Translations under genes and position numbers: made by a program | NCBI GenBank assembly: GCA_951406725.2 | Contig: OX597824.1 | Span: 11,470,001 to 11,534,000 of the forward strand | Source: Octopus vulgaris | Lineage: Eukaryota | Reading direction: 5' to 3' | DNA: 64,000 nucleotides | Shown here: positions 53,370 through 62,648 of the stretch, one piece after another | Layout of the letters: each line of letters opens with the position of its first letter | Position numbering within the stretch: position 1 is the stretch's first letter | The notes under the pieces: model-generated | The model's input: only the letters and a program-made list of their open reading frames with translations | The model's database searches: none | What the model was told of the DNA's origin: nothing

Positions 53370-55757
53370 CGTGCGTGTATGTTTGTGTGTCTGTGTGTCT
53401 GTGTTTGTCCCCCAAGCATTGCTTGACAACCAATGCTGGTATGTTTATGTCCCCCGTCACTTAGCGGTTCGGCAAAAGACACCGATAGAATAAGTACTGG
53501 GCTTACAAAGAATAAGTCCCAGGGTCGAGTTGCTCGATTAAAGGCGGTGCTCCAGCATGGCCGCAGTCAAAATAACTGAAACAAGTTAAAAAAAAAAAAA
53601 GGTCTTTTATAGTATTTGGATAGGTACTCTTTTAGTGGATCCAGCCAGTGTGTTAGGATCATGCTGGGGTACAGTCATCAGCACTGTCATAATTTTTGAA
53701 GTCGAATTGAGTCAGAATATTACTTGTGTTAGTAGCTTAGTGAATAGTAATGTTAGTACGCTTTGTCTATAAATAAACACTTTTTGTTTGGAATTTGGTG
53801 TGGTCCTAGATACATATCCAGACATATCTGAGATCGAACTGATTGGATGAGAGTTTAAATGTAGACGTTAGAAAATGTTTCATATATAAAGATGTGGTTA
53901 TAAGTGTGAAAAATCAATCATTTTAACAATAATTCATATCAGATGCATGAATGAATTCTGTATTTTGTTTTCCAAGGGGTCACCAACATAACATCTTTTT
54001 TTCTTCTTTTTTTTTTTACTTGTTTCAGTCATTTGACTGCGGCCATGCTGGAGCACCGCCTTTAATCAAGCAACTCAACCCCAGGACTTATTCTTTGTAA
54101 GCCCAGTACTTATTCTATCGGTCTCTTTTGCTGAACCGCTAAGTGACGGGGTCATAAACACACCAGCATCGGTTGTCAAGCAATGCTAGGGGGACAAACA
54201 CAGACACACAAACATACAAGCACACACATATATATACATATATATGATGGGCTTCTTTCAGTTTTCATTTACCAAATCCACTCACAAGGCTTTGGTCGGC
54301 CCGAGGCTATAGCAGAAGACGCTTGCCCAAGGTGCCACGCAGTGGGACTGAACCCAGAACCATGTGGTTGGTAAGCCAGCTACTTACCACACAGCCACTC
54401 CTGCACCTATATTTGTATATAATTAATAGTTATTTAATCAATAATAGCTCACTCTTGTGAGAGAGAAAGGGAGAGATAGAGGGTGTGCGTGTGTAAAACA
54501 GGTAGAATGTAGAGAAAGAGAGAGAGTGAGCGAAATACGCATGCTTAAAAATAAAAGAAAATTATTAGCAGATAATACATCAAACACAGAAGAATAAAGC
54601 CATAGGCAAGTAAAGTGATCCAGTTTCAATCCTTGATTGTATAGCAGATTCATTTCACTAAAATCACTAACGTTTTTAGAAAAAAAACCTGAGCATCGTA
54701 CAATCTGATAACACCCATCTACCCAACCTGTTCTCCTGAAAAAATATTAAATTTACAGCTTTTGTAAGAAAACCATTTACAACCAAATAACACACAAAAT
54801 GAAATGAAAAGAAAGAAAACACACAAAGAAAACAGCATGCCAAATGAAATGTGAAACATGGATGGAGATGATGTGTAGATAACTGAAACACTGATGGATA
54901 AACAGACAGGGGCCAGATTCCTCGATTGACCCCTCTTCCTTCAGTTCAGTTACAAAGCACAAAACTAATTTAAACAAGATATTGTTTTCCCTGAATCAAT
55001 ACAAATTGAGGCAGAAGTATATTGTGAGATAAATTGCTTAGAAATTATAACCAGAATATATTCTTAAAGGGAAGGAATACCAACCAGCTAAGAGAATTTT
55101 ACTAACAATTGTATCAAAATATTGTCTTTAGGTAGCAGTGGTGATAATATTGATGATGATCTTGTAACAATATCACTACCACTATTGTCACCATCGTGGA
55201 GGCACATGGCCTAGTGGTTAGAGCAGCAGACTCGCAGTTGAGGGATCGCGGGTTCGAATGTCAGACCAGGTGATGTGTGTGTTTATGAGCGAAACACCTA
55301 AGCTCCACGCGGCTCCAGCAGAAGGTAATGGCGAACTTCTGCTTACTCTTTCGCCACAACTTTCTCTCACTCTTTCCTCTTGCATCTTGCAGCTCACCTG
55401 CGACGGACCGGCGTCCCGTCCAGGTGGGGAACCTATACGCCAAGGAAACTGGGAAACTGGCCCATATGAGCCCAGGCATAGCTTGAGAAGGAACAAACAA
55501 TCGTCACCATCATCCTTTTATTTTCCCACAACCAACATCATGACTAAGGTCCAATCTCCAAACCATATGTTGACAAAATTCTATTGTTTCAAAACTGCTT
55601 TATTCTCTATGTATACTTTTTTTTTTTTTCTTTTACAGAGGTCTTTAACCCTTTAATGTTCAGATGTACTTAATTGGAAAATGATTTGATCCGAGACAGT
55701 CTGTTTAACAATTACAGTATTGAAGGCACATATTAGACATTCAAGAACACACAAAAT

Positions 55758-55911
55758 TTAACTTCACTTAAAGATTTATTATTTGGTGTCAAAATTTTCA
55801 CCAAAATCTTCCCACTGCAACTCAGTTACAACAGAGCTCTGTTTGTGACCAGATTGCAGTCAGTGCAATGAAAATTTTGACACCAAATAATAAGTGTTTA
55901 AGTGAAGTTAA
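55758..55911. repeat. ~155-bp foldback palindrome (MITE-like)
   Basis: Arms TTAACTTCACTTAAA..ATTATTTGGTGTCAAAATTTTCA / TGAAAATTTTGACACCAAATAAT..TTTAAGTGAAGTTAA; centre CAGAGCTCTG. Confidence 0.75.
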
Positions 55912-57257
55912 TTGAATGGCTCCAAACTGTTATTGCTTAAATAGTGTGTATGTAAAGAATTATTTATACCCATCTATATCATTTCATATTCCTTTATGTT
56001 AGAAGATTAGCAGAAATGACAGACTGTTGAGATAGTTGTTCCTTCACATTTTCAGTTGAAACTTTGTTGAGTTGATTTTACCTTTTGTTCTCGTTAGGTG
56101 GGTGAGGTATTCATTAACCCTTTCATTACTGTATTTATTTTGAGATGCTCTGTGTTTTTTTCAATTACTTTAAATATAACAAAGAATTTAGTAAAATAAT
56201 TTAGTCATCATTCAGCTAATTGTGACTAAGGTTTGGTGGAAGATTTTAATTCAAAACTTATGAAAGCAAGACATTTGTACTTAGAGCCAGAGCCGGTTTG
56301 GTAACGAAAGGGTTAAAATAGGTATCAGTCAAGTACTAAAGTTAGTTTATTCAACTACACCCTTCCCTTAAATTTGAGGGTTTGCACCAATGTAGGAAAC
56401 CAATGTGCCAGACAGATTGGCTCTATGGGTAATGTATTGAATTACTAGCTGGTGGATCAGGAGTTCAAAACTGTTGGACAAGATACTTCATTCTACTTGA
56501 TTCGGATCATTCTACTGTTGAAGAAATAGGTCCCAGATATTTTGAAAACGCTACTTCTGATAGACTAGCATCACTTCCAGGAACTGAAACAATCATATCC
56601 CCAACACTAGTATGTGTACTTATCCAACACCATTTATGGTAACATCTCTCTTTCTCTCTCTCTTCAGAAATTCCAATCAAGCAGTGGCTCTTGGACTACA
56701 GTAATTCATGGAAAGGAAAATATTAATGACTTTAATGAATTAATTAATTATGTAACAAAACACATGATTAAGTCACAGACGTTCAGAATTCTTCACAATG
56801 TAGTAATTATCACACACACATTATCTGAATGAATGATTTAACCAATTGAAAGAACAAGGTAGCTATCTGTAACAAAGCAATAGTTTTATCTGCTCTACTA
56901 ATCAGCAACAATATATTACATAGAAGATGGATAATTAAAGTGCCAATCTCATACTGAAACACAGAGTGCAGCTACTCTTTCATACAGACATATCAACCAA
57001 GGAATAAAAGTAATTTTCACTTTCTCAAGACATTAACCAAACCTCTTAACAATGGTAATTGGTTGATATTGCTTCTATCGGACACCTTCTCCCTGTTCCA
57101 ACAGAATCTTCCAAATGACTTAACTTTGTTAAATGAAAGCCTGAAGAAATTAATAGACACTGTAACCAGGGACTAGGAATTTGGCAGGAGCAAAACGGAA
57201 AGGCTTGACACTTGGAATAGACTTGGAATGTGTGCGTGTGCGTGTGTGTGTGTAGGG

Positions 57258-57436: not shown

Positions 57437-59199
57437 GTGTAGGGGAAGGCAGCTGGGCTGACACTCCACACCCAGTATATGACTGTTACTACTTTTACCA
57501 ATCCTTGTAGGAAGAAAAACAAAGGTCATCACTTAATGTGATCTGAACTCAACATAAAGGGACCAGGCAAAATACTGTAAGTGCAATGTGCTGCCGTTCC
57601 GGCTTTCTCTCCACCATGATAGTGTTAACAATAACAAAAGAGTGTGAACACTAGAAACATCGGCCATCCATTGAGTATGAAGAATGGAGATAATTATCAA
57701 CAGATGATATATCAATTATCCATTGTCTGTGAGCAGTTGAGATATTAACTATTAATGTAGTGTGAACAAAAGAGATATCAGCTATCAATCAAGTATGAGA
57801 AAAGCTGTAAGTCAATTTTGTCGAGTTCCATACTGTGAATTAAATGATTAATAATAAAAACTCAAATTCAAACTGTGTACAAGTTATGAGGAGCCATTCT
57901 GCCAAACTTACACATTCTATAGTAAAATATAATTGGTTGTTCACATATCCCTGGGCAAAACATATGAGCAAGTCACAAGTTGATGCCTGCTCCTTACTGA
58001 GAAACTAACCTTTGGTCAACAAAAGAGTCACTTTAACATCAGTGAATGTGAACAGCTTTTTGCTGAATTTTCCACAAGGTGATACACATATTGTTGGTGC
58101 TCCTAGACATACAAAATCCACAATGGGTTTCAGGAAGAATTTGCTTCACATGTCTTTCAACAGTTACTAAGACGGGGCTTATAGACCCTACTCAAAAGAT
58201 CTGGGTGTCAAGATCAATATGTGAACATAGGTGCAGGAGTGGCTGTGTGTTAAGTAGCTTGCTTACCAACAACATGGTTCTGGGTTCAGTCCCACTGTGT
58301 GGCACCTTGGGCAAGTGTCTTCTACTATAGCCTAAGGCCGACCAAAGGCTTGTGGATTTGGTAGACGGAAACTGAAAGAAGCCCGTCATATATATGTATA
58401 TATATGTGTGTGTGTGTGTTTGTGTGTCTGTGTTTGTCCTCCCTGCCCCAACATCACTTGACAACAGATGCTGGTGTGTTTATGTCCCCGTAACTTAGCG
58501 GTTCAGCAAAAAAAGACCGATAGAATAAGTACTAGGCTTACAAAGAATAAGTCCTGAGATCGATTTCCTTGACTAAAGGTGGTGCTCCAGCAAGGCCGCA
58601 GTCAAATGACTGAAAGAAGTAAAAGAGTAAAAGAATAGTCAAGCAGTCCCACAATGATATAATCTTCCATGATTTTTCTTGGGAGCACCAGCTAAACCAC
58701 TTTTCCAATCAAAGCAGGTTTGTATATATTTGCTCCAACACTCTTTGTATTATTTCTGGATGCTGCATTTCAAAACACAGCAAGCAAGATTATCCACATA
58801 AGAGCAGATGGTGGGTTACTGAACTTAACTATGTTTAAGGTCCACTAGGAAGTACTATAATATTTATTTTTTATGCGCCCTTTCAAGCCTATCCAAGCTC
58901 ATGGGCCCGGTTTCTGTGGCATATGTGTTCCCCCCAGCTGGACGGGACGCCAGTCCATCGCAGCGTTACTCAAAAAACAGGAAGAAAGAGAGGGGGCAAA
59001 AGAGTACAACAGGGGTCGCCACCACCCCCTGCTGGAACCTCGTGAGCTTTAGGTGTTTTCGCTTAATAAACACATACAACGCCTGGTCTGGGAATCGAAA
59101 CCGTGATCCTCCGACTGCGAGTCCACTGCCCTAACCACTGGGCCATTGCGCCTCTACACTATAATATTTACAATCACAAATTTCTCCTCAATGTTAACT

Positions 59200-59790
59200 T
59201 AGGTGGACTCATTTCCCTCAAAAATAGCCAGAAAGTTATATATTCTGAATGTGCGTGAGGTGACAACGTTCAGCTTGTTGATAAATGTGAAAACAAAAAA
59301 AAAATTTTTTAATCTGAATTCATATCAATGTAAATCTCAAATGCTAGAACATGAACCATCAACCATCATGAGGACAAGACAACCACTAAGTGTAGTGAAA
59401 ATGTTTAACTATTTGGGTAGTATGATTTTTGACTGTAACAGCCTAGATATGGAAGTGGAATGCTGCATACAGTCTGCTACAATTGCTTTCAGGAAGCTCA
59501 ATAATTTAACTGTAGAAACATGAAACTATGAACAATATACCAAATATATTGAGCAGTAGTACCATCCTGTCTCTTGTATGTTGCTGAGACTTACACACTG
59601 AATCAGCAACATATCAAAATGCTGATGAGCAACCAGTTATGATCAATAATGAACATTACTTGGCAAGACCACATCTCCAACCAGGAAATCTGAAGCAAAT
59701 ATGCTTGGTGTTGAGTCTATCCTGTTAGAATTGCTGGTGAGCTGGATCAGATATATGATCCATAAAAGGCTGGACTCTACAGTGAGCTAA
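59200..59790 (+). mobile_element. Highly decayed RTE-like LINE RT C-terminal region
   Basis: LLINVKTK..VVKMFNYLGS...SLDMEVECCIQSATIAFRKL..LLYVAET..WQDHISN. Confidence 0.6.
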
Positions 59791-60840
59791 AAAGGCAGAG
59801 GGCTATAAATAATGGAGTAGAGGTTACTAAGTTGATCTGAAACAAGAAGGAAAAGATAGAGCAAGATCTGTGTGTGTGTGTGTGTGTGTGCATGTGGTGC
59901 TAGTGTCTTTGGTCTACAGTTCCACAAAAGAATGAAGCATTTGTAGATGAAGATTTTTTTTTTTCCCATTATATTTTATCTTTTACATTTTCAGTCATAG
60001 GACTGGAGCCATGTTGGTTCTTTCTCGAGCCATGCCTGGCTCATAAGGGCCGGTTTCCCAGTTTCCTTAGAGATAAGTTCCCCACCTGGACGGGACGCCG
60101 GTGAGCTGCAAGATGCAGGAGGAAAGAGTGAGAGAAAGTTGTGGCGAAAGAGCAGAAGTTCACCATTACCTTCTGCCGGAGCCGCGTGGAGCTTAGGTGT
60201 TTCGCTCATAAACACACACATCACCTGGTCTGGGATTTGAACCTGCGATCCCTCGACCGTGAGTCCGCTGCTCTAACCAGTAGGCCATATGCCTCCACAG
60301 CCATGTTGGTGCATTGCCTTGAAGTATTTTGATGAAACAAATGATCGGCAGTTATTTTTAAGTCTGGTACTTATTCTGTTGGTTTCTTTTGCCAAATCAC
60401 TAAGTTACAGGGATGTAAACAAACCAACCCCAGTTATCAAGCAGTACAGTGGAGATCAAACACAGATACAATGACACAATGACACATATATTATGATGAG
60501 CTTCCACACAGTTTCTACCTACCAAATTCACTCACAAAGTACTGAACTGCCCAGAGCTATAATAGAAGACATTTGCCTTAAGTACTGCAGTTTGATGCTC
60601 ATGCCATTCTTGAGATCCGTAGTGACATAAATAGAATGGCATGACTACAAAACCGAGCTGCATAAGTGACACATTAGGAAATTACAGATACTCAATGGTA
60701 CTCACCGCACTTCGAGACAAAGTATTTCCTACATTAGTAAACAGCCACAAATTCAAAGAAAAGGAAATGTAGTTGACTATGTTATCATCCGACTAACAGA
60801 TGGAGGAAAAGGCAAATCCAATGGTAGTTAAATAAAATGA

Positions 60841-61267
60841 AAACCTCCTCGAGGAATGTGAAGACGCAGGCTGGAAAGCGGAACATTTTCCTATCGAAGT
60901 CGGATGTAGAGGGTTTGTAGGACACAGCGTGAGACGACTGTTGTTATCGTTAGGCCTAACTCATCGTAAAGTCAATACTACCATGACTGATATCCAATCT
61001 ACAGTGGAGAAGGCTAGCCACTGGATTTGGTTAAAAAGAGACGATGAGCGATGGCTAGAAGTATATTGAGTTCTTCATAACCAGCTGATCTAGCAAGCGG
61101 GGCCCTCATATCAGTGAGGGGGGCCGGTGCGCATTGATGCCGTCGAGAGGTAGGCCCCCGAAACGGCGCGCATTCTCTCCTGATGACCCCATACACTTGC
61201 TAGCTTCCGATATACGGAGCTTTTAACTGGTAGCACTTGCATGTGCAAGTTGTTTGCAAGACATCTA
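60841..61267 (+). mobile_element. 5'-truncated RLE-type non-LTR retrotransposon (HERO-like): ORF end plus structured 3' UTR
   Basis: LEECEDAGWKAEHFPIEVGCRGFVGHSVRRLLLSLG...EKASHWIWLKRDDERWLEVY* (stop 61067-61069), typical of a restriction-like endonuclease C-terminus; flanked by direct repeats 60798-60840 and 61268-61319. Confidence 0.8.
61090..61203 (+). ncRNA. Permuted/pseudoknotted hammerhead-like RNA motif, copy 1
   Basis: GCCGUC-GAGAG..GAAACGGC..CUCUC-CUGAUGA: intact core with stems I and III pairing, plus additional helices (see findings). Confidence 0.65.
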
Positions 61268-62648
61268 AGATGGAGGAAAAGACAAATCCAATGGTAGTTA
61301 AATTCAGTAAATAAAATGATGCAACTAAATGCCAGAAGGATCTTTGCCAGTAGTTCTACTGATACTTCCACACTGTTGCTTGTCTTTAGGATGAATAATA
61401 CTTATATAGATTATCAGAAGAATAAACCGTCTGACACTTAAGACTTTATTATAGAATATCTAAGGAAATTTTAATCTGGTAACTTAATGGTTTTTAATTT
61501 TAAATCATCATCATCACCATCATTTAATCTTTTTTTCTATGCTGGCATGGGTTGAATGGTTTGACAGGAGCTGGTGAGCCAAAGGACTGTGCCAAGCCCC
61601 ACTATATGTTTTGGTATGGTTTCTACGACTAGATGCCCTTCCTAATGCCAACCACTTTAGAGAACATATTGGGTGCTTTTAACATGGGACTGTCATCCGT
61701 GACCTCACCAAGTAACTTGCAAGACAAAATCCTTTCACTGAAGTGGGGGTAGAAATAAGGGAATATGGATTTATGCCAGGTGATGAGAGGTTAAAGTGTA
61801 ATAAAGGACTTTTGAAGGAAAAAAATGGATCATTATGACAATTTAATGACCTGGAAAAGTAGTTTAGAGGGTCCTTGTGAACAGAAGGTCTCAGATTCGA
61901 TCTCATTGCATAGCATCTTGAGCAAATGTTCTTTAGAATAGATCAGGGTCAACCCAAGTAAAGCAAGAGAAATCGGGTTGACAGAAACTGCGTGACAGTC
62001 CACTGAATAGATTCACCTGTAATTTAAAGGTCCAGCTTTTTCCAACTGTGTGTTGTCAGTGTGACATCTGTGGAATGTTTATCCATTTACATACTAATTC
62101 AATGAGGAGGTAGTTTGGTTGATCAAAAACTGAATATTCATCGTCAACATTGATGGAGATCTATGTACTTATAGTTTTAATGTTGTTTTGTAACTTAATA
62201 GCCATTGCAGTTTAATTGTTTTGGCAATAATGACTTTTGCAAATATAAAAGAAATATTTCCATTTAAAACAGGATGTTATTGTTCCTGACTTGAGAACAA
62301 GCTTTACTGGAGCTTAATGACTAACAAGTATCTGATGTCAAAAATATTAGAAGTGATATTGTTTAGTGTTATGGTTTAAAGAACAGATTCCCATACAACA
62401 GTATGCAGAAGGTCTATATCATTATATAAGTAGGCTGACAGCAGACATACCGATACACTGCTGTTATACTGTCATAGAAGATTAGACACCTATACAGGAC
62501 TTGTAAAGAGACACATGGAATAGTTAAGTAATATTAGGATAAACAACTAACAGATTCAATAAAGTGAAAGACAAATGCCTAATAGAGTTGCATCTCAACA
62601 TTTTCAGATTCTGATGGGTTAAATTTACTTTTCATCAGCTTTGAAGTA

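Follow-up and report, generated by a model that had tools for sequence, protein, structure and literature searches.

A hammerhead fold opened at A9/G10.1 in the 3′ UTR of an octopus LINE that may copy from RNA circles

The 3′ untranslated region (UTR) of an abundant LINE in Octopus vulgaris carries a conserved hammerhead fold in which the strand of the core is interrupted between nucleotides A9 and G10.1. This layout is that expected for a circular permutant of the published type SGC hammerhead. We propose that the permutant likely cuts after C61144 and likely lets the LINE copy from a unit-length RNA circle, a combined reading to which we assign slightly better than even chances. The copy examined lies in a 64,000-nucleotide stretch of genomic DNA, hereafter the window, and all coordinates are positions on its plus strand.

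Results

A young RLE LINE hosts the fold

The window contains a 5′-truncated copy (60837..61267) of an RLE non-LTR retrotransposon, whose complete unit spans 3737 nt and carries a single open frame of 1175 codons. A search of the animal's own 2.8-Gb genome with this repeat returned 2322 candidates, and the 40 that were scored are 98-100% identical; the repeat is a young, high-copy RLE LINE. The reverse transcriptase (RT) of the encoded protein corresponds to PF00078, and its best relatives of solved structure are the R2 and LINE-1 proteins. An N-terminal zinc finger, a C-terminal zinc knuckle and a PD-(D/E)xK nuclease can be recognized by eye, and no RNase H family was found in the protein. 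The element is an RLE non-LTR retrotransposon, as evident by its single ORF, RT, zinc knuckle and nuclease and by its dispersed, 5′-truncated copies.

Membership of the HERO clade is likely. In a quick tree of the C-terminus, built without named HERO references, the octopus LINE grouped with fish and lancelet relatives (SH-aLRT 88). Copy flanks are unrelated to one another and AT is preferred at the junctions, which indicates that there is no strict target specificity, as is the case for HERO. With HERO as described in the available text (PMC4640811), the octopus LINE shares a single ORF that encodes a zinc finger, an RT, a zinc knuckle and an RLE, as well as the lack of a fixed target site; fish relatives lie on its branch of the quick tree.

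Most copies are short (160-642 nt in 25 of 30). Among 22 copies with scorable 3′ ends, 11 end at GAYAT (61260..61264 in the window), which is the most frequent 3′ end and the presumed priming point, whereas 2 end one base earlier and 9 up to 6 bases later. These ends point to no fixed RNA end. The window copy itself retains the C-terminal remnant of the ORF, comprising the end of the RLE domain (60842..61069, stop codon at 61067-69). It is bordered by a 36-nt flank duplication, with an upstream copy at 60798..60833 that carries one mismatch and a downstream copy at 61268..61303; this duplication is unusual for the family, since by eye 33 of 34 scored copies have none outside microsatellites. 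A small hairpin (61206..61218, seen by eye) is also present in the closest relatives and is a candidate protein-binding element of the tail.

Several other features were observed. Internally deleted units of roughly 0.6-1.5 kb (L048, L050, L053, L056, L060, L062, L064, L069 and one sequencing-run contig) retain the unit start, the junction and the ribozyme sequence, and are possible non-autonomous, retrozyme-like derivatives. At L224, L267 and G000:C5:131682815, an inverted piece lies beside the ribozyme sequence, which is the pattern expected from twin priming. Elsewhere in the window, three related repeat copies (55222-55656, 58829-59134 and 59991-60288), with a tRNA-like stretch at 60228-60288, probably represent a SINE family, and long inverted repeats at 55756-55913 and 60577-60666 are MITE-like. 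A short frame at 59203-59523 resembles part of the RT region of another LINE.

Architecture and conservation of the fold

The structured region begins 20 nt after the stop codon, as had been claimed, with the 5′ strand of a closing helix (61090-97) and that of a helix termed P0 (61099-102), which together occupy 61090..61102. These are followed by the hairpin arm (61104..61119) of a four-way junction that forms at A9/G10.1 between P0 and stem II, and by the 5′ strand of stem II with G10.1 (61119..61125), which is located upstream of every core block. Next is a segment (61126..61138) consisting of the 5′ strand of P4, the I-II interaction helix (61126-32), and a 6-nt bulge (61133-38). Block S (61139..61149) holds the 5′ strand of stem III, the triplet GUC, after whose C61144 the cut is predicted, and one strand of stem I. 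A 3-nt linker then leads into block G, with the 3′ strand of stem II, GAAA and the 3′ strand of stem III (61150..61167). The remaining strands are those of P4 (61168-74) and stem I (61175-79) and the core sequence CUGAUGA (61180-86), which fill 61168..61186, and finally the 3′ strands of P0 (61187-90) and the closing helix (61196-203) within 61187..61203.

The core of the original prediction is in place throughout (GUC at 61142-44, stem III at 61139-43/61163-67, stem I at 61145-49/61175-79, GAAA at 61160-63 and CUGAUGA at 61180-86), and the closing helix (61090-97/61196-203) and P0 (61099-102/61187-90) are both present within the single closing helix that it described. Some of its registers had to be revised. 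Stem II was drawn at 61121-25/61153-57, which leaves two C nucleotides unpaired; this stem must adjoin GAAA and is instead formed by 61119-25/61153-59. The hairpin proposed within 61103-20 exists with pairing between 61104-09 and 61114-19, and the extra helix proposed at 61127-32/61168-73 exists but is one pair longer, giving the 7 bp of P4 (61126-32/61168-74). Stem II comprises 6 bp in the majority sequence. The window copy carries two extra C nucleotides (one near 61103 and one in 61155-59), neither of which occurs in any of the 29 other closest loci, and once both are removed, P0, the hairpin, the stem II strand and P4 account for every base of the region.

Relatives of the element were collected from metagenomes (80 loci with 29-47% protein identity, the best 80 of 284 confirmed), and the 700 nt after each ORF were searched with a descriptor that comprises the core and stems I, II, III and P4 with at most one mismatch. 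Matches are present in 23 of the downstream regions of these best 80 of 284, versus 0 of 80 antisense regions, 0 of 80 upstream regions and 0 of 230 shuffled sequences, and a search of both strands of the 64-kb window yields a single match. By sequence alone, the bare core order can be read in 27 of the 80 downstream regions and in 17 of the 80 upstream ones, and no upstream case fits the stems. Four downstream cases fall outside the descriptor: L084 and L140 adopt the same fold by eye, and L115 and L139 carry a canonical SGC. A quick tree places 23 of 24 descriptor matches in one branch of 37 rows with an SH-aLRT of 88, which is not firm.

Among the 23 distinct sequences, the pair U16.1-A15.1 is U-A in all 23, as the descriptor required, C11.1 is kept in 22, and the cleavage triplets are GUC, GUA, GUU and AUA. 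Stems I-III display many pair types. Because these stems were selected for pairing by the descriptor, the independent test is provided by the four-way junction, whose P0 and hairpin are absent from the descriptor. The junction forms in 19 of 22 sequences and is gap-free in 18 of 22, compared with shuffled means of 6.7 (maximum 14) and 3.7 (maximum 8), respectively; this count leaves out L081 (a duplicate), L105 (which passed the descriptor with an unconvincing stem II) and the window copy. A cruder count detected the junction in 13 of 23 sequences, with a mean of 5.5 (maximum 12) after shuffling. Furthermore, an unfitted alignment of six close members has 93% of cells paired, with both sides changed in 12 of 23 pairs, versus 45-59% of cells paired in slid-partner controls; P4 and most of stem III, which contain gaps, do not enter this covariation count.

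A search of Rfam with the window end gave no relevant match, and the plain folding energy of the region is ordinary (z -0.28). Both outcomes are expected because stems I and II cross, which is beyond such tools. The nested part (P0, P4 and III) is the predicted minimum-energy fold, with pair probabilities of 0.84-0.90. Across the 3′ UTRs of relatives, the core is kept and compensatory changes are seen (23 of 80 against three controls of zero). The original prediction of a permuted hammerhead fold in the 3′ UTR of RLE LINEs is thus upheld by the descriptor and by covariation, which show the fold to be conserved and its permutation to be non-circular, as is its placement outside hammerhead types I-III, with reversed order and pairwise crossing of stems I, II and III. 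We regard it as nearly certain that the hammerhead fold is real.

A layout related to the type SGC hammerhead

The strand order had also been thought unusual. This order is already that of type SGC (site, GAAA, CUGAnGA), for which cleavage and the rescue of four stems have been demonstrated (Eckert et al. 2023, PMC10085705), and it is the opening at A9/G10.1 that differs. The octopus fold shares with SGC ribozymes (HRIMA-1 and variants) the order of blocks S, G and C, an I-to-II linker of about 3 nt, the full core, the crossing stems, and a helix that joins the other distal strands of stems I and II. According to the available text of that report, SGC ribozymes that share this I-II linker and I-II helix cleave co-transcriptionally, the rates are slow (0.007-0.19 per min), no SGC was seen in genomes of known organisms, and no retrotransposon context is named (PMC10085705).

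In SGC the stem II strand directly follows CUGAnGA, and the authors assume that the two are inseparable (PMC10085705). In the octopus fold, by contrast, A9 leads into an extra helix and a hairpin, whereas the strand that pairs in stem II is found ~60 nt upstream, followed by the interaction strand and the link to stem III. A canonical SGC reading of the octopus locus was tried and rejected, as pairing between 11.1 and the base that follows A9 is seen in 1 of 23 sequences, with no run longer than 1 bp. If the ends of an SGC hammerhead are joined and the chain is reopened at A9/G10.1, the layout of the octopus fold results, from which we infer that it is a circular permutant of SGC. The new feature is the upstream location of the stem II 5′ strand, with the chain opening at A9/G10.1 into a four-way junction that is gap-free in 18 of 22 sequences. 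This break violates the block rule as worded in the available text of Eckert et al. (PMC10085705), and our search of the literature found no tested natural hammerhead broken at A9/G10.1.

Genomic copies that begin at the predicted cut

If the RNA cleaves, some genomic copies might begin at the cleavage site. We retrieved all genome copies that keep the core and do not have the upstream G-run (94 matches). A script classed 40 of them as 5′ junctions and 2 as inversions, and the other 52 continue upstream into element sequence. Exactly at G1.1 there are 8 of the 40 junctions, each belonging to a copy of 119 nt; the script had placed 10 there, and L242 and L251 were left out as diverged copies. 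Other positions hold one or two junctions each; the exceptions, close to the anchor, are +25 with 3 and +26 with 6, among which are a duplicated locus and diverged copies. The excess at G1.1 has a Poisson P of 2e-7 (28 events over 47 other positions), or 1e-5 after allowing for 48 positions, and two further loci begin at G1.1.

Such copies are expected if an RT reaches the 5′ terminus of a cleavage product and runs off, and they constitute indirect evidence of cutting. We think it very probable that the hammerhead cleaves after C17 (C61144). Approximately 1-3% of the templates that reach the cut site appear to stop there, a proportion that also fits weak cleavage. The site is crossed at exact length in 704 of 711 copies, and an indel falls within the 15-nt window in 7. 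Ligation scars add little evidence because they are so rare, with an indel at the cut or beside it in only 4 of 711 copies. Changes of C17 to T were likewise set aside as evidence, as the site is a CpG.

Head-to-tail copies and the nature of the template

Long copies have a peculiar organization. Of 30 loci examined for the unit start, 25 reach it, two of which possibly represent a single duplicated locus. In each of the 25, a tail of the element itself lies directly upstream; the junction is free of indels throughout, and three copies have a substitution at one base. The upstream tails extend beyond the cut site in 18 copies, end short of it in 7 and end at it in none. When upstream and downstream tails were compared within 19 arrays, 176 of 188 diagnostic cells agreed, whereas permuted arrays reached 65% on average and 87% at most, and none of 2000 permutations was as high as observed. 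The other 12 of 188 cells disagree, and two old arrays, C3c and C4, are closer to others than to themselves. The match of tails within arrays implies that a single sequence renews both, as happens with LTR pairs. Among the relatives, 10 of 80 also have a head-to-tail layout or terminal repeat, although collapsed assemblies can mimic this. No array with two full units was seen, and the longest upstream piece measures 1981 nt. A sequencing-run contig has an internally deleted unit joined end to start, which fits either a circle or a tandem copy, and no RNA sequencing run with the LINE was among the matches listed.

It had been proposed that the fold is a 3′ module of the element. The ribozyme does reside in the 3′ UTR but, since every long copy is arranged head to tail, it also lies ~315 nt upstream of the next ORF and is more than a 3′ module. 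The genomic pattern points to a template that would be circular, or seamlessly rejoined. A circle would account in one step for the head-to-tail layout, the lack of a stop at the junction and the matching tails; seamless strand transfer predicts an identical genomic pattern. On balance we lean toward an RNA circle as the probable template of LINE copying.

The foremost competing explanation, which we judge to be unlikely, supposes a linear RNA that is terminally redundant and whose 5′ end is generated by an active ribozyme, as is that of R2 by an HDV-like ribozyme. Head-to-tail copies would be regenerated when RT, on reaching this end, jumps to the matching tail of that RNA or of a sister RNA. 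The R2 RT makes end-to-end jumps, and the scheme would account for both the 119-nt copies from G1.1 and the matching tails. However, an RNA of this kind would terminate at the upstream cut, and none of the 25 long copies stops there. Template jumps by RTs usually leave scars, yet indels near the site are confined to the 7 of 711 copies noted above. In addition, one ribozyme would have to cut while the other stays uncut, and the LINE protein has no RNase H family that we could find.

Somewhat less likely again is that templates are mostly uncut multimers, and that a slow ribozyme, dispensable for copying, acts as a brake, marks the RNA for processing or assists translation. Consistent with this idea, ~97-99% of copies pass the cut site, SGC ribozymes are slow at 0.007-0.19 per min in the available text (PMC10085705), and ribozyme-aided translation has been reported for retrotransposons and RNA viruses. 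But upstream pieces that are dispensable should erode and drift, and those observed carry each subfamily's variants; moreover, distant relatives repeat the head-to-tail layout.

Other ribozyme-like folds in sister elements

The same position of the 3′ UTR is occupied by different folds in sister elements. A canonical SGC hammerhead with a candidate I-II helix is present at 2 of 80 loci (L115:3960-4030 and L139:1590-1670), and an unbroken block C, with the stem II strand directly after CUGAnGA, is present in these two only. At 10 of 80 loci (L114:4135-4200, L101, L103, L109, L112, L120, L125, L134, L137 and L149, with a partial case in L132) there is instead a twister-sister-like motif, consisting of a stem-flanked loop pair plus a pseudoknot, which is absent from antisense and upstream sequences (0 in each). 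None of the 10 carriers also has the hammerhead, and in three carriers the tail is found upstream of the ORF as well. Seven sequences of this motif have 89% of cells paired, a figure that rises to 100% in the 5-bp pseudoknot, where 3 double changes occur.

The twister-sister-like motif has internal loops of 5 nt and 6 nt. Compared with the residues given for the LINE-1 ribozyme in the available text of PMC11620745, the 6-nt side is the same and the 5-nt side is one or two bases off the list. Unlike twister-sister as described there (PMC11620745), the motif has, in place of the second stem, a 4-nt linker paired to a distal strand. Rfam gave no twister-sister match for the motif, which we regard as a candidate for a new ribozyme variant. 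A longer motif with the same 6-nt loop sequence and extra hairpins, again with no Rfam match, was observed 150-230 nt after the ORF in L096, L122 and L142, and is possibly a multi-way version of the twister-sister-like fold.

If these sister folds are ribozymes, then cutting is the selected function of the 3′ UTR position. The RLE LINE lineage might then copy from ribozyme-made circles with an exchangeable cutter, which would be the opened hammerhead, a canonical SGC or the pseudoknotted twister-sister-like fold, although we place this broader proposal a little below an even chance.

These observations also bear on whether the fold is catalytic at all. That it is a non-catalytic, hammerhead-like scaffold bound by the RT/RLE protein, comparable to the protein-bound pseudoknots described for the 3′ UTRs of RLE LINEs such as R2, would agree with the interruption of the core strand at A9/G10.1. 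We consider this very improbable, given that CUGAnGA, GAAA, U16.1-A15.1, NUH and C11.1 are all kept, that copies pile up at the exact predicted cut, and that sister elements have different ribozyme-like folds instead.

Stem III meets P4 without a linker on one strand, and it had been suggested that activity possibly requires a dimer. At this joint, 10 of 23 sequences show by eye a kink-turn signature, in which one strand carries GA and the opposite strand combines a 3-nt bulge with GA; the octopus element's own subclade has a 3-6 nt bulge there. A sharp bend at the III-P4 joint would permit monomer folding. Activity solely as a dimer is the least probable alternative and we give it very little weight, as the P4 palindrome is not kept in L070 and L071 and stems I-III are of the normal length that minimal dimeric hammerheads lack, even though P4 strands in the octopus family are partly palindromic and a cofold lies 9 kcal/mol below two monomers. 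The no-linker geometry is flagged by Eckert et al. as not obviously compatible with the crystal structure, but the SGC ribozymes that share the I-II linker and helix, and that cleave during transcription, appear in the same text (PMC10085705).

Discussion

A proposed replication cycle

According to the circle model that we favor, a head-to-tail copy would be transcribed through two ribozymes, both of which would cut to release a 3737-nt RNA with 5′-OH and cyclic-phosphate ends. The fold would act as a monomer that is sharply bent between stem III and P4. RtcB or the ribozyme itself could then join the RNA ends, and the ORF would be translated without a cap. The protein would nick AT-rich DNA and start priming within the circle at GAYAT, which lies 119 nt past the cut in the downstream direction. 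RT would stop at random to give mostly short copies, and the rare copy that exceeds one unit plus 119 nt would carry two ribozymes and serve as a new master. RNA that escapes ligation would yield the 119-nt copies that start at G1.1. A point against this cycle is that a circle with an intact ribozyme would have to be protected from re-cutting.

Comparison with known elements

Animal retrozymes are processed by hammerhead cutting and RtcB circularization (PMC7229834; bioRxiv 10.64898/2026.07.22.740005). As described in the available text of these sources, animal non-LTR retrozymes and Penelope-like elements resemble the octopus LINE in having tandem genomic copies, and their hammerhead processing to monomers, their RtcB circles and the reverse transcription of circles proposed for them are features that we propose here too. 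Retrozymes are, however, non-coding, 170-400 nt in length and equipped with standard type I folds, whereas the octopus LINE is autonomous and encodes its own RT; at 3.7 kb (a 3737-nt unit with a 1175-codon frame), it is neither small nor non-coding.

R2 and other LINEs have a 5′ HDV-like ribozyme, and the cut defines the 5′ end of full-length R2 copies. In the octopus LINE, by contrast, the template continues across the cut, and none of the long copies ends there. What is shared with R2, also an RLE LINE, is a self-cleaving RNA (predicted here) upstream of the ORF, with a possible role in cap-independent translation (PMC13725137, available text). We found no ribozymes or circles in print for HERO, and no published description of the A9/G10.1 layout or of circles in RLE LINEs in a search that lay outside subscription journals and Repbase Reports.

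Implications

Should the octopus RNA cleave, it would be a natural hammerhead that breaks the continuity rule for CUGAnGA and stem II, and SGC-type folds, which so far come from metatranscriptomes, would be placed in genomic retrotransposons. With three folds that stand in for one another at a single position, the role of cutting can be tested directly, and they point to a second candidate ribozyme. If the circle model is true, a LINE could begin reverse transcription elsewhere than at the 3′ terminus of a linear RNA, and the retrozyme cycle, so far described for small elements that encode no protein, would extend to one that does.
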